Assembly: GCA_964472675.1 (NCBI GenBank) | Contig: CAYYLO010000004.1 | Location: 1,602 to 65,601 of the forward strand | Length of the DNA: 64,000 bases | Origin: an uncultured Gammaproteobacteria bacterium | Lineage (GTDB): Bacteria; Patescibacteriota; Microgenomatia; UBA8517; UBA10165 | Direction: 5' to 3' | Part shown: piece by piece, positions 37,696 through 58,032 of the stretch | How positions within the stretch are numbered: position 1 is the stretch's first letter | How the letters are laid out: each line of letters starts with the position of its first letter | Position numbers and translations under genes: made by a program | Notes under the pieces: generated by a model | The model's input: the letters and a program-made list of their open reading frames with translations, nothing else | The model's database searches: none | What the model was told of the DNA's origin: nothing

Positions 37696-40152
37696 ATGGC
37701 TAATGAATTTGACATAAAACAAGCTAAAATCCACACCCTTCCGGTTGTAGCGTTACGTGGTTCTGTTGTTTTTCCTCGTACAGAAAGTATCCTCACCTTC
37801 GGCCGTCCCAAGACAAAAGCTGCTGTTCAGGCAGCATACTCAGGAGACAGATTGTTGGCTATTTTTACTCAAAAAGATGCCAGGATTTCAGATCCTGTAC
37901 CGGATGATTTATACGAAGTAGGAAGTTTGGTCGAAGTTCAACAGATTATGCCGGCTGACGAAGAAATTCATGTACTGGTTATTGGTAAAGCTCGCATTGG
38001 AATTTCAGAAGTCGTGGCGCAAAATCCATTCGCCGTATACAAGGTCCATGTTTTTGAAGAAAACCTGACGACAACAGCAGAAGAAGAAGCCAGAGCACGG
38101 CATTTGGTTGGCTTATTTGAGAAAGCGATTCGTTTGGGAAAGCCTGCCGACGTTCAAACTGTAATGCGACTTTTATCTTCAAAAATTGAAGTGGCAGAGC
38201 TGGTTGACCAAATTGCCTACCTTTTAGACGTCAAAACTCCGCAAAAGCAGGAAATTTTGGAAACTCTCGACCTGTCTACAAGATTGAAAAAAGTTGAAGA
38301 TTTGTTGGGTCGGGAAGTGGGTATCCTGGAACTTGAGCGTACAATTTCTTCTAAAACGCAAAAAAGATTTGAAGAGCAGATGAAGAAAGCGATGCTCAAG
38401 GAGCATCAAAAAACAATTCAACAAGAACTGCGGGGCTTGGGAGAAGATGATGGGGGAGACGAAGAAATTGACGAATTGCGTCGCAAGATAAAAGAAGTTG
38501 GAATGCCGCGCGATGTGCGCAAAAAGGCAGAAAAAGAGCTAAAACGTTTGGTTCAAATGTCTCCTAATCATCCGGAGAGCGGGTATGTCAGGAATTATTT
38601 GGACTGGTTGGTTGAAATGCCCTGGAGTATAAAGTCTTCAAATGACATTTCTTTAAAACAGGCAGGTGCAATTTTGGATAATGACCATTATGCCTTGAAA
38701 AAAACTAAAGAGCGTATTTTAGAATTTTTGGCTGTAATGAAGCTTAAAAGTGAATCGCAAAAAGCTCATGATTCAACTTTGAATACTGAAGAAGAGGCGG
38801 AAACTATGGAAGGTACGCCGACAATACTTTGCTTTATTGGGCCTCCAGGGGTAGGTAAAACTTCAATCGGTCGTTCAATTGCTCATGCTTTGGGCCGGAA
38901 ATTTGTACGTGTTTCGTTGGGAGGAGTGCGCGACGAGGCGGAAATCAGAGGTCACAGGAGAACTTATGTGGGGGCACTGCCTGGAAGAATTATCCAGGGT
39001 ATAAAAAATGCCGGGACAAAAAACCCTGTATTTATGCTGGACGAGATTGACAAACTTGGCAATGACTTTCGGGGAGACCCGTCTTCTGCTCTGTTGGAAG
39101 TCTTGGATCCTGAGCAAAACAGGGAATTCTCAGATCACTATTTGGAAGTACCCTTCGATCTTTCCGAGGTTATGTTTATTTGCACTGGGAATGTTTTGGA
39201 TACTATTCCTCCAGCCTTGAGAGACAGAATGGAGATCATCCGTTTCGTGGGATATACAGAAGACGAAAAGTACAATATTGCCAAAGATTATCTCTGGCCA
39301 AAACAACTTAAAAATCACAGTCTTCCTGAAGATATACAAATTTTTTCTACAGCTTTGCGGGAGATTATAAATAGGTACACGCGCGAAGCAGGCGTTCGGA
39401 ATTTGGAAAGGAATTTAGCGACGATAGCAAGAAAACTTGCCAGAGACATTGCGGAAGGTAAAAAAGGTGTTAAACATGTGGGGAAAGTAGATTTGCACAA
39501 GCTCTTGGGGCCAGCACAGTTTACGTCACTTTTAGCTGAGAAAAAAGATGAAGTCGGAATTTCGACCGGGTTGGCTGTTACTCCCGTAGGGGGAGAAATA
39601 ATTTTTGTGGAGACTGCTCTCATGCCGGGCAAGGGGAAGCTTACTTTAACTGGCCAGCTGGGAGATGTTATGCGCGAATCTGCAATAGCGGCTTTCTCCT
39701 ATGCAAGAAGTCATTCGTCTGATTTGGGCATAAGCGACAAAGTTTCCAAAGTGACTGATGTTCATATTCATGTTCCCGAAGGCGCAGTACCGAAAGACGG
39801 TCCGTCTGCTGGTGTGGCTATGGCAACATCTTTAATTTCAGCTTTAACTGGCACAAAGACCAGGCGAGATGTGGCCATGACTGGAGAGATAACTTTGCGC
39901 GGGAGGGTTATGGAAATTGGTGGGGTTAAAGATAAGGTAATCGCAGCTCATCGAGCCGGGATCAAGACTGTTGTTTTGCCTAAAGATAATCAAAAAGATA
40001 TGGATGACGTACCAGAGAAAGTTAAACGAGATATCAAATTTATTTTCGCTTCGCACCTTGACCAGGTGCTAGAAGTGGCAATCCCCGCTTTTAACCATAA
40101 ACCACATCGTACCCCTTCTGTCCCTATCCCCTCAAGCTACATAGCAGGCTGA
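37696..40152 (+). CDS. lon: ATP-dependent Lon protease
   Basis: LON N-domain, Walker A GPPGVGKTS, and the protease S-K dyad region KDGPSAGVAMATSLISALTG. Confidence 0.95.
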   Translation: MANEFDIKQAKIHTLPVVALRGSVVFPRTESILTFGRPKTKAAVQAAYSGDRLLAIFTQKDARISDPVPDDLYEVGSLVEVQQIMPADEEIHVLVIGKARIGISEVVAQNPFAVYKVHVFEENLTTTAEEEARARHLVGLFEKAIRLGKPADVQTVMRLLSSKIEVAELVDQIAYLLDVKTPQKQEILETLDLSTRLKKVEDLLGREVGILELERTISSKTQKRFEEQMKKAMLKEHQKTIQQELRGLGEDDGGDEEIDELRRKIKEVGMPRDVRKKAEKELKRLVQMSPNHPESGYVRNYLDWLVEMPWSIKSSNDISLKQAGAILDNDHYALKKTKERILEFLAVMKLKSESQKAHDSTLNTEEEAETMEGTPTILCFIGPPGVGKTSIGRSIAHALGRKFVRVSLGGVRDEAEIRGHRRTYVGALPGRIIQGIKNAGTKNPVFMLDEIDKLGNDFRGDPSSALLEVLDPEQNREFSDHYLEVPFDLSEVMFICTGNVLDTIPPALRDRMEIIRFVGYTEDEKYNIAKDYLWPKQLKNHSLPEDIQIFSTALREIINRYTREAGVRNLERNLATIARKLARDIAEGKKGVKHVGKVDLHKLLGPAQFTSLLAEKKDEVGISTGLAVTPVGGEIIFVETALMPGKGKLTLTGQLGDVMRESAIAAFSYARSHSSDLGISDKVSKVTDVHIHVPEGAVPKDGPSAGVAMATSLISALTGTKTRRDVAMTGEITLRGRVMEIGGVKDKVIAAHRAGIKTVVLPKDNQKDMDDVPEKVKRDIKFIFASHLDQVLEVAIPAFNHKPHRTPSVPIPSSYIAG

Positions 40153-40174
40153 TACAACTCGTTTCAAAACTCGG
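40153..40174. repeat. Left copy of a 22-nt motif TACAACtCGTTTCAAAACTCGg, immediately after the lon stop
   Basis: It matches 52457-52478 (ATACAACcCGTTTCAAAACTCG) with 1 mismatch. Weaker similarity continues for ~20 more nt (gcacatttgact vs tcaatttactt). Confidence 0.7.
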
Positions 40175-40376
40175 CAGGCACATTTGACTGTGCCGCGATA
40201 AGAAACAAGTATTCTCCTAATTGGCCAACAGTTCTTACAAAAGCCTTATTAATTGTAGTGATGTTATCTCACAAAAGAATTTTATTTTGATATACAGCAA
40301 TCTTTTAAAAAGTAATTTAAAGATTTTTGAAAAATCCTTAAAGCCTTTTAAAAGCTTGCCCTAAAACCAAAAAAAC

Positions 40377-43300
40377 ATGGACAAGCTAAAACGGATATTA
40401 TCCCTAACGACACTTTTGCTGGTGCTTAGTAACAGTATACTTCCATATTACTCTTCAGCAAATGTGGTTTTTGCACAAGAAGTAAATGCAACACCTGCCG
40501 CTACTTCGGAAGTGGACGAACCACTTCAGACTTCTTCTGCGCCCACACCAACACCAGAACCAACACCTTCTGAAATTCTTACACTAACACCAACACCAAC
40601 TCCTACTCCTGAAACTGAACTTACTCCAATGCCGGCTGAACAAGAAACAACTGACAACGCTCTACCTGCACCAACCCCTACACCTACACTTTCTGTTGAA
40701 CAGACTGTTATTTCCACACCAATCCCAGTGCCTGTGCCTGCACCTGCACCTGTGCTATTAGCTTGGAAGAATATTGATTCAGCAACAGTTGAAACTATGG
40801 ATAATGTAGAAGCTAACAAAGATTACACTGCTCCTCAAAATGATAAGGTGAAAGTTAACTTTACCAAACTTCCTGAGATTGCTGGAAAACTAACTATTAA
40901 AGAAATTAAATTGTCTTCTAGCCAGGTGGAACAGTTGAAAGCTGTTTCAGACACAGCTTATGAAATTACTTCCACTATGGCTAACGGAACATTTAACTAT
41001 GACTTAACCCTGCCTTTATCAGAGCAAGCCAAAGGCAAGAAGCTGGAAGTAAAAACAGCGGAATCGCAAGAAAAGCTGGACAAAGCACAAACTGTTAATG
41101 AGCCAAAAGAGGAAAAAGCGGATACAATTGCTATTAAAGATTTAAACCATTTTACAGTCTTTGTTATTACCACCCCAGATCCTGACACTACTCAAAAAGT
41201 CTTGATTAATGAAGTAGTTCCAAATCCTCTGAATGGGGCAGAATGGATTGAGCTTTTTAATAACAGCACTCAAGCTACAAACTTAGGAGTGGGAAGCGGT
41301 TGGACTATCAGAAATTCTACTGGCGATACCAGGTCTTTAAGCTCCTTAGGCACTGTTACTGCTTCCGGCAGAGTAGTTTTTGAGGCTCCTGCCAATTGGT
41401 TAAGCAATACTGCCCCTGAAACTATTACTCTATCAAATGAGTTAGGAACACCGGTTGATACAGTGACCATATCTTTAACCTCCCCGGGTTTTGTCATTGA
41501 TCATTACCCGCTGGCTAACGAATCAGTTGGAAGAAAAACAGACGGAGTTGCAGAATGGGTCATCTTTACTATTCCCACCAGAGGCACAGCTAATGTTTTG
41601 CCTAAAACGACAACTAGCCTCTCCGAAGCAGGTCCAATTGCCCCTGAAGGTGGTCTTATGGCAGGTTTCCCATCCTGGTACAAAGACTCTAATGGTTTGG
41701 CGCTTGATTTAATGGAAGCAGCTGATGGTTTTGGTATCTCTGATCCAGTTGATCCATCTAATCCATTTTCACAAACTATTGGCTTTAATGCTGAAGGATT
41801 TTGGTGGTCAGCTGAGGCTTCTATTGACCGCCCAGTAGGCACACGCACCATACTGGTGTTGGCAGTTGAGGCTGCCTTTGCCGGAGAAGCAGCAGTTGAT
41901 GGGGAACAATCAGTGCAAAACAGGCTCAGATACAGGATTGATGGACTGGTACCTGGTGAAACCTATACCATTACCCACCCTTTTGGCACTGTGAAAGAAG
42001 TTGCTGAAGATGATGGGACAATCAATGTCACTGATGACATTGGATGCTTTGCCGGAGGAGGAGTGACCTGCAATCAAACAGCTTCCCCTAACTTTGCCAC
42101 AGCTTTGAACGGTCAAGTAGGGCCATTCTTAACCTGGACCACCTTTAATACTAACCCAGCTTTAACTGACCCTCAACTTACTAATCCTGCCAACCCAAAC
42201 AGAAGATATGTTGGTAATCCCACTATTGAACATGAGGTAACAGGCAGCCCAACAGGCAATAACTTCTTCAGAGTCCAAGGCAAGGATGTGGGTGGCCCTG
42301 GAGTTAACCAAATCCAAACCAACTTATTTGCAGTTTCAGGAAGGCTGGCAGATACAAATGCTCCTGTGATTACCCTTTTTGGCAGTAATCCTGTAAATGT
42401 CAATCAAAATGCTTCTTATATTGATGCTGGAGCAAGTGCTTTAGATGATCTGGGCGGTAACTTAACCGGCAATATTGAAGTTAGCGGTTTGCCTGTTGAC
42501 ACTTCTACCATTGGTGTAAAAACAGTCACTTATACTGTAACTGACAGCGCAGGCCGTACATCCCAAGCAACCAGAACTGTTAATGTAGTTAATCTGGTAG
42601 CGGTAGGAGAAGCAGATACTGTTGCTCCCTTAATCACTATACTTGGGGCAAATCCTGCTTTTGTCACTGTTGGCACACCATATACTGATGTTGGAGCAAC
42701 AGCTTTAGATAATGTTGACGGAGATATTACCGGAAGTATTATCACCACGGGTTTGCCGGTTATTACATCAACAGTTGGCACATTTACTGTTACTTATAAT
42801 GTGGCGGATAGCGCAGGTAATGCAGCAATTCTAGCAAAAAGGACTGTTAATGTGGTAGCAGATACTACTGCTCCTGTAATTACTATGCTGGGGTCAAATC
42901 CTGTCAATATCTTTACAGGCGCTGCTTACTCAGATGCCGGAGCCACAGCCTTGGATGATGTTGACGGAGATATTACCGGGAGTATTGTTACTACGGGTTT
43001 GCCTGTCGATACGTCAAAAGCAGCTACTTTTACCATTACTTATGAAGTAGTTGATTCAGCTGGCAATCCTGCCATTGCAAAAAGAACAGTTAAGGTAGCA
43101 GAAACTTTGCCCGCCAGCCTCTCCGAAGCAGGTCCAATTGCCCCTGAAGGTGGTCTTATGGCAGGTTTCCCATCCTGGTACAAAGACTCTAATGGTTTGG
43201 CGCTTGATTTAATGGAAGCAGCTGATGGTTTTGGTATCTCTGATCCAGTTGATCCATCTAATCCATTTTCACAAACTATTGGCTTTAATGCTGAAGGATT

Positions 43301-45812
43301 TTGGTGGTCAGCTGAGGCTTCTATTGACCGCCCAGTAGGCACACGCACCATACTGGTGTTGGCAGTTGAGGCTGCCTTTGCCGGAGAAGCAGCAGTTGAT
43401 GGGGAACAATCAGTGCAAAACAGGCTCAGATACAGGATTGATGGACTGGTACCTGGTGAAACCTATACCATTACCCACCCTTTTGGCACTGTGAAAGAAG
43501 TTGCTGAAGATGATGGGACAATCAATGTCACTGATGACATTGGATGCTTTGCCGGAGGAGGAGTGACCTGCAATCAAACAGCTTCCCCTAACTTTGCCAC
43601 AGCTTTGAACGGTCAAGTAGGGCCATTCTTAACCTGGACCACCTTTAATACTAACCCAGCTTTAACTGACCCTCAACTTACTAATCCTGCCAACCCAAAC
43701 AGAAGATATGTTGGTAATCCCACTATTGAACATGAGGTAACAGGCAGCCCAACAGGCAATAACTTCTTCAGAGTCCAAGGCAAGGATGTGGGTGGCCCTG
43801 GAGTTAACCAAATCCAAACCAACTTATTTGCAGTTTCAGGAAGGCTGGCAGATACAAATGCTCCTGTGATTACCCTAAATGGTTCTAACCCGGTTGAAGT
43901 GACCCAAAATGAAGCTTATGCTGACAGCGGCGCAACCGCAATTGATAATTTTGATGGTAATCTGACAGCCAGTATTGTAACGACTGGTTTGCCGGTTAAT
44001 ACCTCTGTAATAGGCGTAAAAACCATTACCTATACTGTTTCTGACAGGGCCGGCAATACTGCTATTGCTCAAAGAACTATTAATGTAGTGGCAGCTACCC
44101 CTCCAACTCCAGAACCTCCAGTTCCTCCTGTCCCAGCAGACGGTGCAGGGCAAGCAGATACAACATCTTTAGATGGGTTTTCCTCAACTACTAAGGGGTC
44201 TTATAAAACAGGAGACTTGATAGATATCACTGCTAATTTTGATAAGACTTTAGATGCAGAAAGCACCATGACAGTTGAACTAAGTAATGGTGTCCAAGTT
44301 ATCTTAAGCCAAGTTTCCGGATCAAAGTTAACAGGTACATATATTGTTGGGACAAATATTTCAGAAAACTCTGATAATTTAACTGTAGCAAAAATAATCT
44401 CCAGTAGTATTCAAGCTTCAGACACATTGCCTTCAATAAACTTAAGCAGCATTGTTGTTAATGTCAAAACTTCTGCAGAAGCTGCTGATAAGTCAGGCCA
44501 GGCTGATGTAAATAGTTTGTTGGAACTGGACAGTGAGACTGTTTTAGACATGGGTAGTAATTTAAGTACAGCCACAATAGAAGGCGCAATCACTATTGCT
44601 GGTTTGTCAAAACTGCTAAGTATATTTTCTAATGGTGATCTGGTGAATCAAAATCTAACCTTACCTCAAATTATTGGTGATAAATTGGTTATGGTAAGTA
44701 AGGCAGTCAGGTTAAACTCCGGCCCTAGTGGTTCATTGATTACCTTATCCAATAAAAACCTGTCAACTGTTAAGTTGTCTATAGTAAGTGGAACAACAGT
44801 ATTAGGAGAAAGTAGCTGGAACGGCAAGGTCAATCCTCCTTCTATTGTTACAAATACTGGTATTGCGCCTAGCGGGTTCAAACTCGGTGATTTTGCAATT
44901 GAGGTAGGTTATCCGGAAGGAATCCTGCTTTTTGACCAATCAGTAACCATCCTTTTATCAGGCGTCAATGGCCCTGTCGGATATAAACCCTCAGGCTCTG
45001 ACACTTGGGTTAAGATGGCAAATTGCTTGGGCACTTTTGACAGTCCGCTTAAGCCAGTTTTCCCTGGGGAATGCGCAATTTCTAATGGGGCAGACACCAA
45101 AATCTATACATATCATTTAACTTCTTTTGCCAATTTACAGGAAATTCCCCCTGTTTCCATCCCAACCCCAACACCAGCTATTGTAGTAGCAAGCTCATCT
45201 AATACAGACACTAACACTAATACAACTTCATCCAATTCTAATCTCTCTAATTCTTCCTCAAACAATACTTCTAACAATCCTTCCACTCCTGTTTGTACTG
45301 ATTCCAAGCCAGGCAGTGCTCCTATCTTGCTTTCTGCCGTCACCAGCGGTCCTAACCAGGTGACCTTAACCTGGTCAAAAGCATCTGATCCTGTTTCCCA
45401 TTATTCCATAGTTTATGGCTTGTCGGCAGGCAATCCTATTTATGGAAATACTAATGTTGGGGGGAAGGATACTACCTCATATGCAGTTGGCGGTTTGTCT
45501 GGCGGAACAACTTATTACTTCAAAGTCAGGGCAGGCAATGGTTGTAATGGCAGTGAATATTCAAATGAACTGTCTGCCGCACCGGACGGAGGAACAATAA
45601 ATAGTCCTGCAACAGGATTTACCCGGGGGTTATTGGGTGCTCAGACTGAAGAAGAAACGAAGACTAGCGAGCCTGGAGTCTTAGGTGTCAATGTAAATGG
45701 GCTTGCTTCAAAGAGCAAAGGAACCTGGGCAATACAGCTAATGTTGGCAGCTTTAGCAGCTTTGGGTGTTGGTTATTTTAAGTTCTTTTACAGGAAAAAA
45801 TTAAATGGGTAG
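40377..45812 (+). CDS. Giant secreted multidomain surface protein (1811 aa). Domain order: signal peptide, PT-rich linker, lamin-tail domain, a duplicated unknown domain, Ig-like (DUF5011-type) repeats, an SNT-rich linker, a two-Cys FN3-like module, and a C-terminal TM anchor.
   Basis: - Signal peptide: MDKLKRILSLTTLLLVLS.
- Lamin-tail motif: VLINEVVPNPLNGAEWIELFNNS...GW.
- Ig-like repeats: APVITLxGSNPV...Y.DAGATA.D..DG(D/N)(I/L)TG.I...GLPV.TS..G...VTY.V.DSAGN.
- C-terminal TM helix AIQLMLAALAALGVGYF followed by KFFYRKK. Confidence 0.85.
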   Translation: MDKLKRILSLTTLLLVLSNSILPYYSSANVVFAQEVNATPAATSEVDEPLQTSSAPTPTPEPTPSEILTLTPTPTPTPETELTPMPAEQETTDNALPAPTPTPTLSVEQTVISTPIPVPVPAPAPVLLAWKNIDSATVETMDNVEANKDYTAPQNDKVKVNFTKLPEIAGKLTIKEIKLSSSQVEQLKAVSDTAYEITSTMANGTFNYDLTLPLSEQAKGKKLEVKTAESQEKLDKAQTVNEPKEEKADTIAIKDLNHFTVFVITTPDPDTTQKVLINEVVPNPLNGAEWIELFNNSTQATNLGVGSGWTIRNSTGDTRSLSSLGTVTASGRVVFEAPANWLSNTAPETITLSNELGTPVDTVTISLTSPGFVIDHYPLANESVGRKTDGVAEWVIFTIPTRGTANVLPKTTTSLSEAGPIAPEGGLMAGFPSWYKDSNGLALDLMEAADGFGISDPVDPSNPFSQTIGFNAEGFWWSAEASIDRPVGTRTILVLAVEAAFAGEAAVDGEQSVQNRLRYRIDGLVPGETYTITHPFGTVKEVAEDDGTINVTDDIGCFAGGGVTCNQTASPNFATALNGQVGPFLTWTTFNTNPALTDPQLTNPANPNRRYVGNPTIEHEVTGSPTGNNFFRVQGKDVGGPGVNQIQTNLFAVSGRLADTNAPVITLFGSNPVNVNQNASYIDAGASALDDLGGNLTGNIEVSGLPVDTSTIGVKTVTYTVTDSAGRTSQATRTVNVVNLVAVGEADTVAPLITILGANPAFVTVGTPYTDVGATALDNVDGDITGSIITTGLPVITSTVGTFTVTYNVADSAGNAAILAKRTVNVVADTTAPVITMLGSNPVNIFTGAAYSDAGATALDDVDGDITGSIVTTGLPVDTSKAATFTITYEVVDSAGNPAIAKRTVKVAETLPASLSEAGPIAPEGGLMAGFPSWYKDSNGLALDLMEAADGFGISDPVDPSNPFSQTIGFNAEGFWWSAEASIDRPVGTRTILVLAVEAAFAGEAAVDGEQSVQNRLRYRIDGLVPGETYTITHPFGTVKEVAEDDGTINVTDDIGCFAGGGVTCNQTASPNFATALNGQVGPFLTWTTFNTNPALTDPQLTNPANPNRRYVGNPTIEHEVTGSPTGNNFFRVQGKDVGGPGVNQIQTNLFAVSGRLADTNAPVITLNGSNPVEVTQNEAYADSGATAIDNFDGNLTASIVTTGLPVNTSVIGVKTITYTVSDRAGNTAIAQRTINVVAATPPTPEPPVPPVPADGAGQADTTSLDGFSSTTKGSYKTGDLIDITANFDKTLDAESTMTVELSNGVQVILSQVSGSKLTGTYIVGTNISENSDNLTVAKIISSSIQASDTLPSINLSSIVVNVKTSAEAADKSGQADVNSLLELDSETVLDMGSNLSTATIEGAITIAGLSKLLSIFSNGDLVNQNLTLPQIIGDKLVMVSKAVRLNSGPSGSLITLSNKNLSTVKLSIVSGTTVLGESSWNGKVNPPSIVTNTGIAPSGFKLGDFAIEVGYPEGILLFDQSVTILLSGVNGPVGYKPSGSDTWVKMANCLGTFDSPLKPVFPGECAISNGADTKIYTYHLTSFANLQEIPPVSIPTPTPAIVVASSSNTDTNTNTTSSNSNLSNSSSNNTSNNPSTPVCTDSKPGSAPILLSAVTSGPNQVTLTWSKASDPVSHYSIVYGLSAGNPIYGNTNVGGKDTTSYAVGGLSGGTTYYFKVRAGNGCNGSEYSNELSAAPDGGTINSPATGFTRGLLGAQTEEETKTSEPGVLGVNVNGLASKSKGTWAIQLMLAALAALGVGYFKFFYRKKLNG
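41616..43876. repeat. Perfect 761-nt direct repeat (41616-42376 and 43116-43876) with a 1500-nt period inside giant gene 1
   Basis: Line-by-line comparison shows 100% identity over 761 nt. It encodes a duplicated ~250-aa domain (LSEAGPIAPEGG...NAPVITL). The antisense ORF pairs 41504-41851/43040-43351 and 41910-42116/43410-43616 are artefacts of this repeat. Confidence 0.9.
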
Positions 45813-48800
45813 AAAAGTCTTATCAGCATTTTTGATTTTAGTTGTTGTTTTTTCGAATGGATTTTTAACTTTGGCACAGATTGCTTTAGCTGCTCCAACT
45901 GGTGAAAATAAAACGTTTTATTTTCGAAACCAAAGTGCGCAGTTGCCCAGTAGCCATGTTTTAAGTACCACTGCTCCAACTTCAGGAAATTCTCAAAACA
46001 CTTCCATAACCAGCACTGACTCTCCATCATTCCGGCATTTTCATCCGGGAATAACCAGTTTTCAACATATTTTTGCTACTGAACCAGCTCATACCTTGCC
46101 AGTTGACTTGGCCTCATGGATTTCTGATGTGCCTCTTGATGGTACTTTCCAGGCAGGCAGCTGGAAATTTATAGTACACAAAAACGACAATATCAAAGGG
46201 GAAGTCTCAGTCCCCCATTTTAATGTTTACAAAAGTCCCAGCAATACCAGTTTGGATCAGGCAACTTTTCTTTTTGATGTGGAAGGGCCTGACTGGTGGA
46301 CATCAAGCGATGAGCAGCTTAATTTTTCTACACCCTTACTTAGCCAATTTGAATTTAATAATGCATATTTGGTAGTGCAGCTTTTTGACCAATGCAAATC
46401 AGGTTGTAACGGTGGGAAAATTATGACAGTTTTTGAAGATGGCACGTCTGCTGCTACCCAAACCAGGATAGAAACACCATTATTTGTCCCAGCTGGCAGC
46501 AATGAACCTGTGCCCCCGCCTTCTGCCCCAGCTCCAGAACCTTCTGCACCTCAACCTCCAACCCCCCCTGCAGATATTACTGCCCCTATAATCACTATTT
46601 TGGGAGATAGTCCTGTAACAGTCTTTTTAGGCTCTACTTATATAGATGCTGGTGCTACCGCCATTGATAATATTGACGGTGCTATTTCTGTTGAGACAAC
46701 CAATGCAGTGAATACTGCTGTTTTAGGAGGATATTCTGTAATTTACAAGGCTACTGATAGCGCAGGTAATACTAGTGTTCCTGCTATCAGGACTGTGAAT
46801 GTGGTAGCACCACCAGCCCCAGTGCTTCCACCTCCAGCTCCTATTGTACCTCCTTTACCTCCCTTAGATACCATTGCTCCTGTAATAACTATGCTTGGCT
46901 CATCTCCTTTAGATGTGACAATTGGCTCTGTATACAACGATGCCGGAGCTACAGCTTTGGATAATATAGATGGTGATCTGGCTGCTAAGATTAGTGCTTC
47001 CGGATTACCTATTAATACTGCTAGTGCAGGAACATTTACCATTACTTATAATGTGGCGGATAGCGCAGGCAATACTGCCACACCTGTTACTAGAATTGTG
47101 AATGTGATAGCAGCCCCAGAAGAACCAGCTGCCCCAGCTCCAGAGCCTCCTCCACCTCCAGTCCAACCTTCTGCTCCTAAAAACTCCCCTCCAGTGGTGG
47201 AACCTATCCCTTCTCAAACCATTACGGTTGGGACTCCAGTCTCCTTTAAAGTAATAGCTACTGACACGGATGGGGACGCCTTAACTTACTCTTTAGGCCC
47301 TAATGCTCCATTGGGTGCGACAATTGATCCTAAGACAGGCGCTTTTTTTTGGCTACCGCAAGTTGTAGGCACAACAAATTTTGATATTCTGGTTTCTGAT
47401 GGAGTTAATACTCCGGTTACAACTGGCCACTTGATTGAAAACCGGAACTTAGGAGTTGATGGCATTTTAGGCACAGCAGACGATATTTTCATTGGTGGCA
47501 TGGCTACTTGGGGGATGGTCAAGGCTCAAGCGCGGGACTTTTTAGGCATATTGTTAGATGATTTAGATGTGCTCGACTTGCCACTTTTGGCAACTGACGC
47601 GTATGGCAATTTTATCAAAGGCCCGAATGGTTTTCCACAGCTGGTGATTGATGGCGGTTTACTAGAAGGTAATCCAGCCTCCCCTGTTGATGCCTCAAAA
47701 GCAGTCCGGACCCACCATCCATTTATAGTAGATATCAGCCACAATGCTAATCCTGTTAACTCGCGGGGTGTGCCTCTTAAAGCTGATTCGGATAATGTGA
47801 TTGGACTATCTGAACCAGGCACATATGACAATGAGTTGTTGGATGCGCATTTTATGGCCGGAGACGGTCGTGTTAATGAAAATATTGGCTTAACAGCAGT
47901 CCACCATATTTTTCATTCTGAGCACAACAGGTTGGTGGAGTACGCTAAAAATGTGATACTGGATACAGGTGATTTAGCTTTTTTAAGCCAATGGTTAGTA
48001 GCAGGTAGTGCACCAGATACTTTTCCTCAAACACCTCAAGAAATTACTGCTTTGTCTTGGAATGGGGAACGGTTGTTTCAGGTGGCTAAATTTGGTACGG
48101 AAATGCAATACCAACATTTGGTGTTTGAGGAATTTGCCCGCAAAGTTTCCCCGCAAGTCAATATATTTTCAGGCTATGACAATAGCATTGATCCGGCCAT
48201 TATGGCTGAATTTGCCCACACAGTCTATCGTTTTGGCCACAGTTTGTTAACTGACACCGTTGCGCGTACTAATGAGGATGGCACCACCAATGACATTGGT
48301 TTAATACAGGCCTTCTTAAACCCATTAGAGTTTGTAGCAAGCGGGGATACGCCCATTAAGGCTGCAGGCGCTATTGTTTCAGGCATGGTTAACCAGGTTG
48401 GCAATGAGATTGACGAATTTGTCACAGAATCTTTGCGAAGTAACTTGTTAGGTCTGCCTTTGGATTTGGCTACTATTAATTTAGCCCGGGGACGGGATAC
48501 TGGTGTTCCTCCGCTGAACTCAGCCAGAAAGCAATTTTTTATGGCGACTGGTGGAGATTCGTCTTTAAAGCCATATACCAGCTGGGTAGATTTTGGTTTA
48601 AATATTAAACACCCCCTCTCCCTAATAAATTTTATTGCAGCATATGGCACACATCCGACTGTTTTAAATGCAGCCAGCTTACAAGAAAAACGTGCGGCGG
48701 CTGCTTTGTTAGTTGATGGAGGAGAAGGCGCGCCAGAAGATAGAGTGGATTTCCTAAACAGCACTGGTAATTGGGTTAGTACTGGTTTAGATACTGTTGA

Positions 48801-51800
48801 CTTTTGGATCGGTGGTTTAGCGGAAAAACAAATGCCTTTTGGGGGGCTTTTAGGCCCTACCTTTAATTTTGTGTTTGAGACCCAAATGGAAAAACTGCAA
48901 GATGGAGATAGATTTTATTACCTATTCAGAAATGCCGGCTTAAACTTTTTAACTTCTCTTGAGCAAAACTCCTTTGCAGAATTGGTGATGAGAAACACTG
49001 AAGGCGTCAAGCACACGCCACATGATATTTTTTCGCATCCGGCTTTTACTATTGAAGCTGCCGATATTGATCCTTTGAACCCGGCAACGTTTCCGCCTGA
49101 CACAATTATTATGCCTGATGGCACTATCCGCTACACAGGGGTGGAGCATATTGTGATGGGAGGTACAGCGGGTAATGATAAACTGCATTCATCTGAAGGC
49201 GATGATACTCTTTGGGGAGATGAGGGTAATGATAGGCTGGAAGGTGGAGCAGGCAATGATGCAATTTTGGGCGGTGCAGGTGATGATATTTTAACTGATA
49301 TTTTTGGCGATGATAATATTAAAGGCGGCGAAGGCAATGATGTGATCAACGCAGGAGTTGGCATTGATCTGATTTTAGGAGGGGATGGCCAGGATTTTGT
49401 GGTGGCAGGCAGGGATTCAAAAGAGACTTTTGGAGGGGCTGGTAATGATTTTATTATAGCAGGAGACGGAGCTGATACAGTGTTTGGCAATGAGGGGGAT
49501 GATTGGATTGAAGGCGGTGACCAGGCGGATTTATTGCAGGGTGATAATGGCGATCCTTTCCAAAGCTCACCCACCATTGGCAATGACGTGATCATAGGCG
49601 GCGGGGGCAATGATGATTATGACTCAGAATCCGGCGATGATATTATGCTGGCCGATCCGGGCATTGAACGGAACGAAGGCATGCTTGGTTTTGACTGGGT
49701 GATATACAAAAATGATCCGCAGCCTGCCAATGCAGATATGTTTATTACAGGCTTGTTGCCGCCAACAGTAAATGATTTGCGTGACCGGTTTGATTTGGTT
49801 GAAGGCTTGTCCGGAGGCAGCCTTGACGATATTTTAAGGGGCGATAACCGCACCAGTGTTGGTTTTTTGGACCATGCTTTAAATAACCCTGCCCAAATTG
49901 CTTTGATTAACGGGTTACAAAATTTGCTGGGGGATGGGGTGAGCTCATTTTCAGGAGGAAATATCATATTGGGCGGAGCGGGTAGTGACGTAATTGAGGG
50001 TCGGGGCGGTGATGACCTGATTGATGGTGATGCCTGGCTGAATGTGCGTTTAAGTGTGGGGGATATTAGTGCAGACAGTATGACAGAACTTCAAACTGCC
50101 ATGTTTGAAGGCAAAATAAATCCCGGACAAATAAAAATTATCCGCGAGATATTAACCTCCCAAACAGAAGATGACATTGATACAGCAGTTTTTTCAGGTA
50201 ATCTGGCTGATTACACCATCAGTCAGCCAGATGCTCTAGGTAGGATTACAGTAACAGATAATAGGAGAGAAGATGGAGGAGGAGGCAGAACTAGTGATGG
50301 TACAGATACCCTTCGCAACATTGAACGCTTGCAGTTTGCTGACCAGACTATAGATTTAAATAAGTCAAACAAAGTATCAGCTCCCGCCCTAGTAGATAAG
50401 ATCTCTGAGCCAGGTGTTAGTAATTTGAGATCAGGAGTAGGTTTGACCTTGATTAGGTCTGATCTGCAGTTTATTTTGGATCAGATTAAAATTGCCGAAG
50501 CTCATGCTCAAGGTGCGTTCTTGTCCGGCCTAATCCCCAAAGACGTTTTACCTTGGGGTTTGCGGACAGTTGATGGGACTTTCAATAACATTGTGTCCAA
50601 TCAATCTGAGTTTGGGGCGGCAGACAGGGTATTCCCCCGCCTGACCACACCAGTTTTTAGAAATGCGGAAAATGCAACTTTTGATTTGGATGGGCCAGGC
50701 CCTTTAACTTTAGGCCAGCCAACCTCTTATGCTCAAAATAACGGTTTTGTGTTTGACTCGCAACCCCGCTTGATCAGCAATTTAATTGTTGATCAAACCT
50801 TGGGCAATCCTGCTGCTCAAGCCGCCAGTGCGTTTAGCTTACCTGACCCACAAACTAATAGTTTATTTATCCCAAACATAGCTCCTGATATGGGATTGTC
50901 TGCATCTTTTAATTCCTGGTTTACCTTGTTTGGACAGTTTTTTGATCATGGGTTGGATTTAGTCAACAAAGGCGGTAGCGGTACAGTATTTATCCCGCTT
51001 GCTACTGATGACCCGCTTTTTAACCCTGCCAGCCCGTCTAATTTCATGGTTTTAACAAGAGCAACAAACCAACCTGGCCCGGATGGCGTGTTAGGCACAT
51101 TGGATGATATTCATGAACACACAAACCAAACATCTCCTTTTATTGACCAAAATCAAACTTACACCTCACATCCTTCACATCAGGTATTCCTCCGTTCATT
51201 TAATTTTAGACCGGCTAACAGTTTGTCAGTTTTGGCAAATATAACAGTTGCTCCAAAGATTTTCTCTGTTTTTGGACAAGGCAAGTTTACTTCCACAAAT
51301 GGGCAAACTATTACACCTAAAGTTGTTTCCCAGGGAATCTCTGTTGTTTCAGTGGAAGACGGCGGGGGAATACATTCTGTGACTGTACCGGATGGAACAG
51401 AGATTACCAAAAGCAATGGCAAAGACATCGATATCACTGCCTTAACAGCAGCGGTGCCTGCTATAGATTCCTTAACAGGAATGAATAAAGGAGTGGTGGT
51501 TAATGGCAAGTTGCAATGGGGGATTCCCAACCAGGGGTTGTTGTTTAGTAACCCAATTTCACTGGATATATTTGTTGGTACTGATTTAAATGGTCAGACT
51601 TTGGATGTGCTGCGTTCTGAAACTGGTACTGGTAATTGGACCAATGAGGGAATTGTGGCCCCTGCAACTTGTTTAGTGGCAAATGGCATGTGTACATTTC
51701 AGGCCACAAAAGCCTCAGTTTATATAGCTGCTCAAACTGTAGCTAGTGCTGGGGGAACAATTGGCAATGCTTCCCCAACAGATAACAATAATAGTAATAA

Positions 51801-52440
51801 TACACCCACGAACACATCTAATACAGCCACTAACACTAATACAATTTCATCCAGTTCTAATTCCTTTAACTCTTCCTCAAGTAACGGTTCCTCCACCCCT
51901 TCTAACGCTTCTGCTCCTGTTTGTACTGATTCCAAGCCAGGTAGTGCTCCTAAGTTACTTTCTGCCATAGTTACCGGTCCCAACCAGGTAACTTTAAGTT
52001 GGTCTAAGGCCCAAAATCCTGCAACCTATTACTTAGTAGCTTATGGAACTTCTTCTGAGAATCTACAATTTGGTAATCCTAACGTGGGTGGAGCTGATAC
52101 TACTTCATATGTGGTTAATGGCTTGTCCGGCGGAACGGCTTATTACTTTAAGGTTAGAGCTGGGAACAACTGCATGCCGGGAGAATTTTCCAATGAGTTG
52201 CCTGCAACAGTTGACGGAAGCGTAATTAGGCAGCCCGCCTCAGGGTTTACTGAAGGTGTGTTGGGAGTTAAAAAGGAAACACTCGACAACCCAACAATCG
52301 ACAAACCTGCTCTTGCTCCTACAACTTCCGAAAGTCGAAAGAACAGGATTTTCCAACTAACTTTAGCAGCGATGGTCTTATTAGCTATATCCTATGGTCT
52401 TTTTTATCGCCTTGCTAAAAGAGTAAGCCGACGGTTGTAA
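45805..52440 (+). CDS. Giant secreted multidomain protein (2211 aa). Domain order: signal peptide, Ig-like (DUF5011-type) x2, cadherin-like/He_PIG domain, animal-heme-peroxidase (peroxidase-cyclooxygenase superfamily) domain, RTX hemolysin-type Ca-binding repeats, an N-terminal-type peroxidase segment, an SNT-rich linker, a two-Cys FN3-like module, and a TM anchor. The 8-nt overlap with giant gene 1 suggests translational coupling.
   Basis: - Signal peptide: MGRKVLSAFLILVVVFS.
- Ig-like repeats: APIITILGDSPV, APVITMLGSSPL.
- Cadherin-like: PSQTITVGTPVSFKVIATDTDGDALTYSL.
- Peroxidase motifs: GDGRVNENIGLTAVHHIFHSEHNRLV (Arg/Glu heme-link motif), RFGHSLL (proximal His), LARGRDTGVP, VDFWIGGLAE, GDRFYY.
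- RTX nonapeptides: GGAGNDAILGGAGDDIL, GGEGNDVINAG, GGAGNDFIIAGDGADTVFGNEGDDWIEGG.
- After the RTX block: TVDGTFNN and FGQFFDHGLD (distal His), SPFIDQNQTYTS (Ca loop).
- C-terminus: TM helix plus basic tail. Confidence 0.85.
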   Translation: MGRKVLSAFLILVVVFSNGFLTLAQIALAAPTGENKTFYFRNQSAQLPSSHVLSTTAPTSGNSQNTSITSTDSPSFRHFHPGITSFQHIFATEPAHTLPVDLASWISDVPLDGTFQAGSWKFIVHKNDNIKGEVSVPHFNVYKSPSNTSLDQATFLFDVEGPDWWTSSDEQLNFSTPLLSQFEFNNAYLVVQLFDQCKSGCNGGKIMTVFEDGTSAATQTRIETPLFVPAGSNEPVPPPSAPAPEPSAPQPPTPPADITAPIITILGDSPVTVFLGSTYIDAGATAIDNIDGAISVETTNAVNTAVLGGYSVIYKATDSAGNTSVPAIRTVNVVAPPAPVLPPPAPIVPPLPPLDTIAPVITMLGSSPLDVTIGSVYNDAGATALDNIDGDLAAKISASGLPINTASAGTFTITYNVADSAGNTATPVTRIVNVIAAPEEPAAPAPEPPPPPVQPSAPKNSPPVVEPIPSQTITVGTPVSFKVIATDTDGDALTYSLGPNAPLGATIDPKTGAFFWLPQVVGTTNFDILVSDGVNTPVTTGHLIENRNLGVDGILGTADDIFIGGMATWGMVKAQARDFLGILLDDLDVLDLPLLATDAYGNFIKGPNGFPQLVIDGGLLEGNPASPVDASKAVRTHHPFIVDISHNANPVNSRGVPLKADSDNVIGLSEPGTYDNELLDAHFMAGDGRVNENIGLTAVHHIFHSEHNRLVEYAKNVILDTGDLAFLSQWLVAGSAPDTFPQTPQEITALSWNGERLFQVAKFGTEMQYQHLVFEEFARKVSPQVNIFSGYDNSIDPAIMAEFAHTVYRFGHSLLTDTVARTNEDGTTNDIGLIQAFLNPLEFVASGDTPIKAAGAIVSGMVNQVGNEIDEFVTESLRSNLLGLPLDLATINLARGRDTGVPPLNSARKQFFMATGGDSSLKPYTSWVDFGLNIKHPLSLINFIAAYGTHPTVLNAASLQEKRAAAALLVDGGEGAPEDRVDFLNSTGNWVSTGLDTVDFWIGGLAEKQMPFGGLLGPTFNFVFETQMEKLQDGDRFYYLFRNAGLNFLTSLEQNSFAELVMRNTEGVKHTPHDIFSHPAFTIEAADIDPLNPATFPPDTIIMPDGTIRYTGVEHIVMGGTAGNDKLHSSEGDDTLWGDEGNDRLEGGAGNDAILGGAGDDILTDIFGDDNIKGGEGNDVINAGVGIDLILGGDGQDFVVAGRDSKETFGGAGNDFIIAGDGADTVFGNEGDDWIEGGDQADLLQGDNGDPFQSSPTIGNDVIIGGGGNDDYDSESGDDIMLADPGIERNEGMLGFDWVIYKNDPQPANADMFITGLLPPTVNDLRDRFDLVEGLSGGSLDDILRGDNRTSVGFLDHALNNPAQIALINGLQNLLGDGVSSFSGGNIILGGAGSDVIEGRGGDDLIDGDAWLNVRLSVGDISADSMTELQTAMFEGKINPGQIKIIREILTSQTEDDIDTAVFSGNLADYTISQPDALGRITVTDNRREDGGGGRTSDGTDTLRNIERLQFADQTIDLNKSNKVSAPALVDKISEPGVSNLRSGVGLTLIRSDLQFILDQIKIAEAHAQGAFLSGLIPKDVLPWGLRTVDGTFNNIVSNQSEFGAADRVFPRLTTPVFRNAENATFDLDGPGPLTLGQPTSYAQNNGFVFDSQPRLISNLIVDQTLGNPAAQAASAFSLPDPQTNSLFIPNIAPDMGLSASFNSWFTLFGQFFDHGLDLVNKGGSGTVFIPLATDDPLFNPASPSNFMVLTRATNQPGPDGVLGTLDDIHEHTNQTSPFIDQNQTYTSHPSHQVFLRSFNFRPANSLSVLANITVAPKIFSVFGQGKFTSTNGQTITPKVVSQGISVVSVEDGGGIHSVTVPDGTEITKSNGKDIDITALTAAVPAIDSLTGMNKGVVVNGKLQWGIPNQGLLFSNPISLDIFVGTDLNGQTLDVLRSETGTGNWTNEGIVAPATCLVANGMCTFQATKASVYIAAQTVASAGGTIGNASPTDNNNSNNTPTNTSNTATNTNTISSSSNSFNSSSSNGSSTPSNASAPVCTDSKPGSAPKLLSAIVTGPNQVTLSWSKAQNPATYYLVAYGTSSENLQFGNPNVGGADTTSYVVNGLSGGTAYYFKVRAGNNCMPGEFSNELPATVDGSVIRQPASGFTEGVLGVKKETLDNPTIDKPALAPTTSESRKNRIFQLTLAAMVLLAISYGLFYRLAKRVSRRL

Positions 52441-52456
52441 GCCTACTAATAAGAAT

Positions 52457-52478
52457 ATACAACCCGTTTCAAAACTCG
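52457..52478. repeat. Right copy of the 22-nt motif ATACAACcCGTTTCAAAACTCG, 17 nt after the giant gene 2 stop
   Basis: See the left copy at 40153-40174. Confidence 0.7.
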
Positions 52479-53551
52479 TGCGTCAATTTACTTTTCAAAA
52501 AGGGGTTGTTAGAATAGTTTTAATGGAAGCTCCATCAGCAGTATCGGATAGACCTATACTTTACAAACCAACTGATACGGAACTTGCCAGGGAATCGGTA
52601 GAGGAAGCAGGAATAAGATATTTTGCTGCACTGGCAAGCTTGGCTAGAACTCCAGAAGAGCTGCGCGCATTAGTTCGTCTTCATGCGCAAAAAGCAGCAG
52701 AAGCTGGCGGTCCGGTTTTGGGTGAAGTTTTAACTGGATTCTCTGAAGAATTATCAAGTGCTTCTCAACCTGTATTAGAAGAACCGGAAGGCACTCCAAC
52801 ACTAGAAAAAAGAACTGTGCAAACGCCTATGGGGGAACTTACTCTTTATCCTCAAAGAAAAGAAGCAGCCTCCCCTCTTCTTCCAAAAGAAAAGGGGGCA
52901 GTTAGGTTGCCTGATGTAGTATTTGAAATACTAGAAACTCTTGCGAAAGATCCGCGTGTCGTAGTTAACTATGAAGACTTAATTAAAAATGTCTGGAAAT
53001 ATGAAAGCTATAATAAGAAAACAGACCTGTCAATGGTAAGAACCCGAGTATATGTTCTTCGCCAATTATTAGGAGATAGCGGAGAAGGTGTGGCTTCTGC
53101 AAGAAAATTCAAATTTATTCACACCTTTGAAGAAGGTATTTCTTTAACAGATCATCTTACTGTTGACCAAATTATCCGCCTAACCCCACAGGAAAGAAAA
53201 GATTTACATATTGCAAGCGCTACTATTCCTGGAAGAAATAGACAGCCAAAACAAGTGTTTCTTGATGCCGCACGGGGAATTGCAATTGTGCCAGATTCGG
53301 CAACAAACCCATATAAATATTTGTCAACGCTGGAAGCCGATGTCCTGGAAGCATTGATGCGTCATCCACAATCTATACTTCCCAAAGATATGTTTATTAA
53401 TATTATAGAAAAACACGGATATATCTCAAAGACAGACGATAAAACATCTGCTTTAAAAGCACTTGTGTATCGTTTAAGACAAAAGCTGGAAGAGGATCTT
53501 CCAATTTATACTATTGATAATGGCCATACGCTTACAGAAAGAATGCATTAA
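52478..53551 (+). CDS. Tandem OmpR/PhoB-type winged-helix (trans_reg_C) DNA-binding protein with no receiver domain. ATG at 52523 is the likely real start; the GTG at 52478 overlaps the repeat motif.
   Basis: There are two copies of the trans_reg_C pattern: VRLPDVVFEILETLAKDPRVVVNYEDLIKNVWKYESYNKKTDLSMVRTRVYVLRQLL and ...LSTLEADVLEALMRHPQSILPKDMFINIIEKHGYISKTDDKTSALKALVYRLRQKLEE. No D-box/receiver motifs are present. Confidence 0.55.
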   Translation: MRQFTFQKGVVRIVLMEAPSAVSDRPILYKPTDTELARESVEEAGIRYFAALASLARTPEELRALVRLHAQKAAEAGGPVLGEVLTGFSEELSSASQPVLEEPEGTPTLEKRTVQTPMGELTLYPQRKEAASPLLPKEKGAVRLPDVVFEILETLAKDPRVVVNYEDLIKNVWKYESYNKKTDLSMVRTRVYVLRQLLGDSGEGVASARKFKFIHTFEEGISLTDHLTVDQIIRLTPQERKDLHIASATIPGRNRQPKQVFLDAARGIAIVPDSATNPYKYLSTLEADVLEALMRHPQSILPKDMFINIIEKHGYISKTDDKTSALKALVYRLRQKLEEDLPIYTIDNGHTLTERMH

Positions 53552-53599
53552 ACCCCAACATCTTTTTAGGTGAGCCGCCTTCCCCGTGTTTGGAGCCGT

Positions 53600-54376
53600 T
53601 TAATGTAACTTTACCCAACTATTACCGGAATTAACTTCCATAAGCTCAGGTCCCGCGCCACGGTAAGCACAAGGATTTTGGTCTCTTTCTTCTTTACTAA
53701 TTATCACTTGCTTTTTTGAAGCAACTCCTTTTTGCTGAAACTGCGCAAAAACTTCGTCACTCATATGATTGAATACAGAATCCAAATCTGCAAACGGTGA
53801 CAACCAATTATCAATTTTCTTGGGTGGCAGCCCGATCTTGCCATAGATCGCGTCAAATGAGTAATAACCGTCCAGGAATCCCGCAAAACCAACCAACTCA
53901 CCAGCTTTAACCCTATCCCCAGTTTTTAACCCGTCTTTAACCTTAATATGCTCAACACTAAAACTCCACATTCCAACTGGCGGGATATTGGCAAACATGC
54001 GCCGGGGAGAAATCCATAATTCCTGTTCATTATCATTTAATGAAAAAATCAATGTAATATAACCATCGAAAGGAGCGTAGATCTCTACCACTTTATCTGC
54101 TCCACGGTTTTCTTCCTTTTCCCACAAATAATGCTTCATATTTCTTTTGCTTTCTTTTTCGTTTTGGGGTACGACGACATGTCCGGTGCAACTTCTGAAC
54201 TTGGAGATTTTTTCAATCTTATCTAAGTTGACAAAATTTGCCGTTATCTGCGGGGGAGGTGTATTCCGGTTGGAAAAGATAGAGAAAAGCGATGCTCCTG
54301 CGAATATCAGGATCAAAACTCCGACACCGATTAGTATTTTTAAAATGAAAGACAGGCGAGCAAACCCCTTTTGCAT
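53600..54376 (-). CDS. Hypothetical membrane-anchored protein (a degenerate M23/LytM-like beta-barrel is possible)
   Basis: An N-terminal TM helix and a GDRVKAGELVGFAGF segment reminiscent of the M23 C-terminal strand, but with no HxH metal site. Confidence 0.4.
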   Translation of the reverse strand: MQKGFARLSFILKILIGVGVLILIFAGASLFSIFSNRNTPPPQITANFVNLDKIEKISKFRSCTGHVVVPQNEKESKRNMKHYLWEKEENRGADKVVEIYAPFDGYITLIFSLNDNEQELWISPRRMFANIPPVGMWSFSVEHIKVKDGLKTGDRVKAGELVGFAGFLDGYYSFDAIYGKIGLPPKKIDNWLSPFADLDSVFNHMSDEVFAQFQQKGVASKKQVIISKEERDQNPCAYRGAGPELMEVNSGNSWVKLH

Positions 54377-54624
54377 CTTGCATTTATTGTGGCAGGTTTC
54401 AGTAGTATGGTCAATTTTTTGGTGACCTTACTGACTGAGGAATGGAACACCTTATGAAGAATTTGCCAGAAGGACAAAATTGAGAGACTGAATGGCCGCT
54501 GGCTTCTAGTCAGTATCGAATGTATGAATTCTCTAATCTCAGCTTGGAGAAATGGTTGGGAACAAAATATACATAGAATTTGTTGCAGTGAAAATGCTAT
54601 GATTACCTTAATATAAGTCCTTCG

Positions 54625-56079: not shown

Positions 56080-56137
56080 TCCTTACTCGTGTAAGAACTT
56101 ACATTTGGTTTAAAAAATGCATAGCAAAGTACAATAG

Positions 56138-58022: not shown

Positions 58023-58032
58023 ATTAATAGCG

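Follow-up and report, generated by a model that had tools for sequence, protein, structure and literature searches.

A 22-nt motif on both sides of a giant-gene operon in Candidatus Blackburnbacteria and its probable place in a low-copy dispersed repeat family

Motif copies in the window and in other genomes

The window analysed here, the whole 64-kb stretch of contig CAYYLO010000004.1 (64,000 nucleotides, nt), is 99.9% identical to the NCBI contig JACPKD010000021.1, which comes from a metagenome-assembled genome (MAG) of Candidatus Blackburnbacteria. Two adjacent giant genes, giant1 and giant2, lie in it between lon and the gene of a winged helix-turn-helix (wHTH) regulator, and a near-identical 22-mer stands at each end of the pair, copy A at the end of lon and copy B after giant2 (Table 1). 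The first A of copy A is the final base of the lon TGA (40150-40152), so that the original prediction, which put this copy at 40153-40174, was one base off, while its coordinates for copy B are exact; copy B starts 16 nt, not 17, past the TAA of giant2 (52438-40). As predicted, the two 22-mers differ at a single position. The direct repeat AACTCG...AACTCG described for the motif is intact in copy A, but in copy B its first unit reads AACCCG. The weak similarity noticed for about 20 nt beyond the motif is real but short, the tails GCAGGCAC (40174-81, site A) and TGCGTCAA (52479-86, site B) being followed by ATTTGAC and TTTAC, respectively, and from end to end the two window pieces are alike at ~27 of 30 positions, with small gaps.

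The 22-mer pair is real and not due to chance. No match other than copies A and B is present in the window at up to three mismatches, and 100 shuffles of the window gave no match at all. A census of direct 22-mer pairs with at most one mismatch over the whole window returned seven repeat diagonals, of which the copy A/B pair is one, the other six being five coding repeats within or between the giant genes and one gene-end repeat (15.8/16.1 kb), and a first-order Markov simulation predicts 0.017 such pairs per window. These figures bear out the earlier judgement that a chance match is very unlikely, and the recurrence of the 22-mer in other genomes removes the remaining doubt.

An exact scan for TACAACNCGTTTCAAAACTCG in one genome per species (185,579 species) found, besides one isolated gammaproteobacterial MAG match that equals the chance expectation, only two other assemblies, JACPEJ01 and MHBW01, which are both Ca. 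Blackburnbacteria and hold two exact copies each. The two in JACPEJ01 share one strand of a 686-kb contig (128.6 kb and 502.6 kb), and those of MHBW01 lie on contigs 33 and 1 only, not on the contig with lon or the contig with the giant genes. A profile search added a seventh, diverged copy in CAYIUF01 (L025, minus strand, 9232-9145, ATATAACTCGTTTCAAAAACTCA...). A pattern scan of metagenomes returned the MHBW01 copies again (L007, L009) and two matches consistent with chance (L006, L008), which we rejected as family members, as they match the core only and have no downstream hairpin. The copy-bearing genomes are thus four, with Lon proteins 78-89% identical to that of the window, and identity to the 22-mer consensus is 22/22 for copy A, 21/22 for copy B, 22/22 four times and 19/22 for the L025 copy. 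Profile and covariance-model searches of the window and of ~370 kb of related loci gave no further copies.

The neighbours of these copies are unrelated to one another (Table 1). The motif loci of JACPEJ01 and MHBW01 have no nucleotide similarity to the window beyond the motif, and no orthologues of the relatives' copy-flanking genes are present in the window. The minus-strand neighbour gene of the L025 copy is not orthologous in the other genomes, and no filled/empty pair could be obtained from it. All seven copies point the same way as the downstream gene, and an upstream same-strand stop lies within 20 nt of the start of four or five of them, though not of the L025 copy. The same position relative to a stop codon, which had been claimed for the window copies, therefore holds loosely (0 versus 16 nt) and is no rule of the family. 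Dispersed copies after unrelated genes, which the earlier proposal linked to a REP-like element, do exist in other genomes, but they are few, not many.

Searches for known relatives of the motif and for an enzyme that could move it were negative. No recombinase, transposase or integrase was found in the 64-kb window by Pfam scans of open reading frames (ORFs) of at least 120 aa, no transposase, integrase or REP-associated tyrosine transposase (RAYT) was found beside any copy, and no RAYT (Y1 HUH transposase) gene is present in ~430 kb of window and related loci. Rfam at gathering thresholds reports only two tRNAs in the window, and a permissive Rfam scan of a full-length copy gave a best E-value of ~4, with 12-16 bits against thresholds of 66-70. 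Pattern scans of viral contigs with two patterns and BLAST against phages and plasmids gave no relevant match, and in the literature we found no description of its sequence or of such repeats in Blackburnbacteria.

A longer unit starts sharply with the 22-mer in the four JACPEJ01 and MHBW01 copies and in L025. Upstream of ATACAAC no sequence is kept among the full units, and both ends are sharp, 5' ATACAAC... and 3' ...CAGCTTCATA. In JACPEJ01 and MHBW01, with CAYIUF01 included through hairpin 2, the order is the 22-mer, a variable loop of ~22-26 nt, TTTTGAAACGAG, N-TTGG-AG, and GAAGCTG...CAGCTTCATA. As TTTTGAAACGAG is the exact inverted copy of 22-mer positions 7-18, the two form the 3' and 5' strands of hairpin 1. 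The second stem, GAAGCUG/CAGCUUC, closes a tetraloop in JACPEJ01 and CAYIUF01, which gives an 88-nt unit, while in MHBW01 (L004/L005) it closes a 54-nt insert with two further hairpins, which gives a unit of ~140 nt. The hairpins are followed by AUUGGAG and AUAAAG, and the apex of hairpin 2 supplies TTGAAA, with TACAAT (L003) or TATATT (L025) 16 nt further on. Compared with the 3' end in reverse complement, the 5' end shares the 10-mer GTTTCAAAAC and a few bases (12/22 ungapped).

The full units fold with z-scores of -4.3, -4.8, -2.5, -3.6 and -3.8. A covariance model built from the three 88-nt forms recovers the MHBW01 copies and places the 54-nt insert in the loop of hairpin 2. In a six-sequence alignment 91.9% of the pair cells are canonical, a share that falls to 33-53% if the 3' partners are shifted by 1-3 columns, and two pairs change on both sides: in hairpin 2, G-C becomes C-G in L025 (G.U in L004), and in hairpin 1, U-A at position 8 becomes C-G in copy B. 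As the alignment is fitted to the model and holds few sequences, this covariation is supportive but no proof. Substitutions also give G.U pairs on the sense strand, namely in hairpin 1 of L005, at the base of hairpin 2 of L004 and twice in the insert hairpin of L004, with one A.C exception, which is weak support for folding as RNA on the same strand as the flanking genes.

A short ORF of 23-31 aa (MKLFQNSFSNLVSK...) runs along the reverse strand of the full units (L002 646-733, L004 6861-6999, L025 9145-9232), and the 54-nt insert difference leaves it in frame (51 nt). We rejected it as a gene (MKLF..SFS.LVSK): the 22-mer lies outside it in L004, and we judge it a by-product of the palindrome because the compensatory hairpin-2 change of L025 is doubly non-synonymous.

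The two sites compared with the closest relative

The closest relative, MHBW01, has ~85% nucleotide identity to the window and is syntenic with it over giant1, giant2, the wHTH gene, a 258-aa gene and Fic; the giant1-giant2-wHTH block of this type was seen in 10 contigs from several samples. Both motif-bearing pieces are lacking there, and the two genomes differ by presence or absence at two loci, with indels of 28 nt at site B and 29 nt at site A. In the relatives both flanks of the site-B gap are kept, including TTTACT-17-TAGAAT and the ATG of the wHTH gene. At site A, the MHBW01 lon (L021) ends ...GCAAGCTGA, with ATTTGACATTGCC directly after the TGA, and the window lon ends ...GCAGGCTGA, followed by the 29 nt and then by ATTTGACTGTGCC, which is identical to ATTTGACATTGCC at 11 of 13 positions. 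At the site-A tail, GCAGGCAC(A), the sequence GCAGGCACA agrees at 7 of 9 positions with GCAGGCTGA, the last 9 nt of lon (40144-52), and could be a target duplication or microhomology; nothing comparable was seen at site B against the MHBW01-type contigs.

The tails of the window copies resemble each other and not those in other genomes. A profile of the relatives' tails, that is of everything after the 22-mer, found neither window site, which is why we do not take these tails for diverged full-length units, and an apparent unit 3' end at site A (TTCTTACAAAAG) is part of the giant1 upstream region kept in L029 and L027. At site B a possible 3' arm of hairpin 1 (p = 0.009 against shuffled downstream sequence, p = 0.06 against random window positions) has a G that pairs with the changed base of copy B, and the same arm is present in the relative without the motif. 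Site A has no hairpin 1 (9/15 pairs), and the folds of the window copies are no better than those of shuffled sequence (z -1.8 and -1.0). A terminator scan found no intrinsic terminator (GC-rich stem-loop with U tract) at either site. A -35-like hexamer follows each copy after 8-10 nt, TTGACT at 40184 for copy A and TTTACT at 52487 for copy B.

Table 1 Features around the two motif copies in the window, and settings of the copies in other genomes
Feature	Position	Strand	Remarks
YkuD gene	36852-37559		upstream of lon
lon	37696-40152	+	upstream neighbour of copy A
22-mer copy A, ATACAACTCGTTTCAAAACTCG	40152-40173	+	equals family consensus
~29-nt piece at site A (22-mer and tail GCAGGCAC)	40153-40181	+	missing from the MHBW01 lon 3' flank
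Weak promoter-like TTGACT-17-AAGTAT	40184-40212	+	putative; directly after the site-A piece; below scan threshold
giant1	40377-45812	+	LTD, Ig-like, HYR and fn3 domains
giant2	45805-52440	+	Ig-like, animal haem peroxidase, RTX and fn3 domains, C-terminal anchor
22-mer copy B, ATACAACCCGTTTCAAAACTCG	52457-52478	+	single change T8C against copy A
28-nt stretch at site B (22-mer and tail TGCGTCAA)	52459-52486	+	gap in 9/9 aligned syntenic contigs; edges ambiguous by ~2 nt
Promoter-like TTTACT-17-TAGAAT with TG	52487-52515	+	between copy B and the wHTH ATG; kept in motif-less relatives
Possible hairpin-1 3' arm, TTTCAAAAAGGGGTTG	52493-52508	+	pairs with 22-mer positions 4-18, 12/15
wHTH regulator gene	52523-53551	+	two Trans_reg_C winged-helix domains; downstream neighbour of copy B
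Copy in L002			before N6/N4 methylase and BsaWI-like endonuclease pair (restriction-modification, R-M, system); no nearby upstream ORF
Copy in L003			between rplU and rpmA (L21, L27)
Copy in L004/L009			between RRM-protein gene and pheS-pheT
Copy in L005/L007			between anchored hypothetical protein and FAD/NAD oxidoreductase
Copy in L025			divergent spacer between YkuD gene and hypothetical gene

Explanations of the motif pair

We favour, with modest confidence, the explanation that the window motifs are ~29-nt solo 5' modules of a low-copy, dispersed, non-coding repeat family that is specific to Candidatus Blackburnbacteria and appears to behave like repetitive extragenic palindromic (REP) sequences and their inverted doublets (REPINs) or like miniature inverted-repeat transposable elements (MITEs). 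The presence of copies differs between close relatives, and the spacers that hold them are intergenic and have unrelated neighbours. The 22-mer would be the part that is recognised in trans, by a recombinase, a transposase or another binding factor; this would account for its 95-100% identity in six of the seven copies (86% in the seventh), in contrast to the remainder of the unit, which diverges or is absent. Full-length units would fold in the sense transcript of their neighbours. The position of both window copies at one operon is probably due to local copying of the short module between two nearby permissive spacers; the tails of the window copies have a similarity to each other that is not found in the other genomes.

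REP/REPIN sequences and MITE-like repeats are the closest known kinds. The REP/REPIN sequences of Proteobacteria, which are known there in bacterial interspersed mosaic elements (BIMEs), are likewise short (~20-35 nt) intergenic units, often just after stops and co-oriented with transcription, whose presence varies between close strains. They occur as singlets, like the window copies, and as inverted doublets, as in hairpin 1 of the relatives, where CAACTCGTTTCAAAA pairs with its inverted copy over 12-15 bp in L002-L005. In contrast to them, the Blackburnbacteria unit is no palindrome and lacks the 5' GTAG signature, no RAYT gene was seen, a second stem able to hold a 54-nt insert is added, and there are ~2 copies per genome instead of tens to hundreds, a count that covers exact copies in the JACPEJ01 contig and the MHBW01 assembly and, for the window, also profile and covariance-model matches.

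MITE-like repeats (Neisseria Correia elements, pneumococcal RUP and BOX, Rickettsia RPE) resemble the full units in being ~90-140 nt long, non-coding and sharp-ended with strong predicted structure, in their dispersal in intergenic DNA of small genomes, and in that they can bring or abut promoter hexamers. They differ from the Blackburnbacteria family, which has terminal inverted repeats of only ~10 nt (GTTTCAAAAC), no consistent target-site duplications, no known cognate insertion sequence (IS), and window copies of only ~29 nt.

Two further classes fail defining tests. Integron attC sites also stand right after the stops of cassette ORFs and form an imperfect hairpin, and ATACAAC agrees with the R'' box RYYYAAC at six of seven positions; however, no R' box GTTRRRY pairs with all of R'' (only CAAC/GTTG pair), hairpin 1 is a perfect 12-bp stem without extrahelical bases, and there is neither an IntI nor a cassette array, but single copies between housekeeping genes. 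The palindrome-associated transposable elements (PATEs) of the IS200/IS605 type share with our units two subterminal hairpins, the lack of real terminal inverted repeats and the usual lack of target duplication, but no tetra- or pentanucleotide is kept at the left junctions (GCTG, GAAT, AATC, AAAG, AAAC, AGAT, AGGG), and no TnpA or TnpB was seen.

A lineage-specific small repeat family is thereby defined in an ultra-small genome of the candidate phyla radiation (CPR), with its sequences, ends, two-hairpin architecture and covariance model. To our knowledge, small dispersed repeats are little documented in CPR bacteria; the practical importance of the finding is modest.

Several results weigh against a dispersed repeat family. 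Since a transposase, RAYT or integrase turned up neither in the window nor next to any copy, mobility is deduced only from presence/absence and dispersal. The copy number (two exact in the 686-kb contig) is far below that of typical REPs or MITEs, the terminal inverted repeats are weak, with only the shared 10-mer at both ends, and a target duplication is seen only at site A, where it is imperfect. At site B, the plausible hairpin-1 3' arm in the motif-less relative means that a deletion there fits as well as an insertion here. The window tails are not significantly similar to the relatives' units. Finally, two of the very few copies flank one operon, both upstream of -35-like hexamers, which would not be expected of random placement and leaves room for a local regulatory role. 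Our confidence in the whole explanation is not higher because of the missing enzyme, the low copy number and the weak terminal repeats and target duplications.

A less likely explanation is that of a host RNA element of 3' untranslated and intercistronic regions, a processing or stability signal or a non-canonical terminator that selection keeps at each locus. It would agree with the four or five of seven copies that start 0-18 nt past a same-strand stop, with the substitutions between copies that give G.U on the sense strand and would be A.C mismatches on the other, with the compensatory changes in both helices, and with an insert of variable length inside a kept closing stem. The window copies do not fit it well, as their predicted folds do not stand out from shuffled sequence and site A lacks hairpin 1, so that the structure is missing exactly where the motif is best conserved; the closest relative lacks the piece at both loci, and the L025 copy lies in a divergent spacer. 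The earlier suggestion of a conserved post-stop element thus stands for a REP-like recurrence beside unrelated genes and falls for a canonical terminator, as neither window site has a U tract or a terminator call.

We find it quite doubtful that the motif is a host cis-regulatory DNA site, in which AAC(T/C)CG-N6-AACTCG would serve as an operator or activator site upstream of the giant-operon and wHTH promoters and co-regulate both, the full units elsewhere being clusters of sites. The distance to the -35-like hexamers would suit such a role, and at 52487 the hexamer is one part of the TG-extended TTTACT-17-TAGAAT that ends 7 nt before the ATG. Winged helices of the OmpR/PhoB type are known to bind direct repeats, and the neighbouring regulator carries two domains of this kind. 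Its homologues, however, occur only in the MHBW01 lineage (one match), while the motif is also found in JACPEJ01 and CAYIUF01, and MHBW01 has both the regulator and the giant genes with the motif at neither place. We accordingly disfavour the wHTH protein as the cognate binder of the 22-mer, having a single homologue lineage whose orthologous spacers lack the motif. The L025 unit, which precedes a TTGACT-17-TATTAT promoter in a spacer between divergent genes, where transcripts are unlikely to read through, and the common orientation of the downstream gene in all seven copies also fit a regulatory site, but the downstream genes elsewhere (L27, R-M methylase, pheST and oxidoreductase) form no plausible regulon, and the region upstream of giant1 holds better operator candidates, two TCTYACAAAA boxes.

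These boxes (40233-40243 and 40267-40277, 34 nt apart) are kept in L029 (2099-2327) and L027 (9850-10000), and they are candidate operators for the linked Trans_reg_C regulators.

There is also an outside chance that the 88-140-nt unit is an undescribed structured sense-strand RNA of Candidatus Blackburnbacteria, with a protein or guide RNA that would read its invariant 22-nt 5' strand in trans and, by the same recognition, would copy the short module into new promoter-proximal spacers. Its fold would be hairpin 1 with a large variable loop and a conserved stem, at the end of which there is a tetraloop or a three-way junction. If this were true, the window pair could also be recombination or regulatory bookends that couple the giant operon to the regulator.

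Other readings of the 22-mer itself were rejected from its sequence: a parS-like site has the half-sites GTTTCA..AAAC but would be 4 bp too short, and the defining features of attC, dif-like, SECIS or read-through elements and of promoters are missing.

The lon-greA interval and other features of the locus

The remaining explanation is that the two 22-mers are attL/attR-like direct repeats left by the integration of a two-gene surface-protein cassette between lon and the regulator gene. In the more distant relatives (JACPEJ01, CAYIUF01 and L030) the backbone is YkuD-lon-(1-3 kb of variable genes)-greA-LysRS/AsnRS-HD-SerRS, whereas in the window lon and greA (58965) are separated by 18.8 kb (40153-58964) that hold giant1, giant2, the wHTH gene, the 258-aa gene, a 484-aa gene, Fic, tRNA-Glu, a 230-aa gene and an aldo-keto reductase. 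The genes after lon differ in every relative examined (seven lon contexts), and include a 211-aa ORF, an Rce1-like gene, thioredoxin/DsbD/IMS, a PhdYeFM/ParE pair and opposite-strand ORFs. This indicates that lon-greA is a variable region in which the giant genes are not ancestral, as one reading of the original prediction implied, and among Blackburnbacteria the interval is a hot spot at which gene content varies. The right limit of the variable block lies far beyond 52478, and synteny with the MHBW01-type contigs runs past this position through the wHTH gene, the 258-aa gene, Fic and the tRNA region.

Orthologous giant-gene pairs are present in MHBW01, in CAZRWL01 (L027) and in L029. In the latter two the pair adjoins a GAF histidine kinase, and in these cassettes the kinase or a response regulator stands in place of the wHTH gene; no motif was found at either at up to five mismatches.

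Although the repeats are direct and lie in the same orientation at both ends of a two-gene unit, the lon-greA interval varies between strains, and the gene pair sits in different genomic contexts in different genomes, we reject att boundaries, which have a very small probability: the giant2-wHTH junction lacks the motif in the closest relative and synteny continues beyond 52478, the cassettes of L027 and L029 lack it, in MHBW01 it lies on other contigs only and in four genomes it stands at unrelated loci, no recombinase was found among the window ORFs of at least 120 aa, and none of the seven lon contexts has the predicted empty site, lon directly followed by wHTH, or the motif. The 22-mers are, with high confidence, not att sites of the cassette, and the motifs were not created by the insertion of the giant genes and do not delimit their cassette. 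It is tempting to infer from the motifs a discrete, mobile 12.3-kb surface-protein cassette with att ends, but this would be wrong.

The start of the wHTH gene is most likely ATG 52523, which is also the start in the NCBI annotation of the same strain. The promoter-like element ends 7 nt before it, an arrangement that points to a leaderless mRNA. Besides its two Trans_reg_C domains the protein has no receiver domain, and its homologues, with 94% identity, are limited to the MHBW01-type lineage.

The giant genes have repeats of their own. A near-identical 1.5-kb tandem duplication lies within giant1 (41614-42377 versus 43114-43877; 743 overlapping 22-mer pairs, offset 1500), and since JACPKD010000021.1 breaks inside it, the annotation of that contig has giant1 as a partial protein. 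Near-identical stretches are also shared by the two giant genes at their 3' ends (fn3/anchor; 45196-45324 in giant1 versus 51815-51952 in giant2), which suggests recent gene conversion or duplication between them. In giant2 an animal-type haem peroxidase domain (E 7e-62) is combined with RTX calcium-binding repeats, Ig-like and fn3 domains and a membrane anchor, an unusual surface enzyme for an ultra-small CPR bacterium.

Upstream of lon, a small protein encoded divergently from YkuD (36323-36730, minus strand) has LPETG, a hydrophobic stretch and a basic tail at its C-terminus, which by sequence is a sortase-type anchor signal, and it is kept in five relatives. In some MHBW01-type contigs a large serine recombinase (Resolvase, Recombinase and Zn_ribbon_recom domains) lies upstream of YkuD-lon (L020 6991-8547, L022 383-1939); none is called at the same place in the NCBI contig MHBW01000017 (L021), and we regard the recombinase as a separate mobile insertion near the locus. 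A fragment of an RVT_1 reverse-transcriptase gene was also seen at a contig end of MHBW01 type (L007 13629-14336, minus strand), ~12 kb from the repeat copy.

Elsewhere in the window, the gene-end repeat of the census is a 33-nt direct repeat (15821-15853 and 16063-16095), by which the last codons of the ORF 15275-15859 (...MILGDEQEFV) recur 242 nt downstream. It brackets ~210 nt of non-coding DNA, with its second unit just before secD (16104), and looks like a gene-end duplication around a small insertion.

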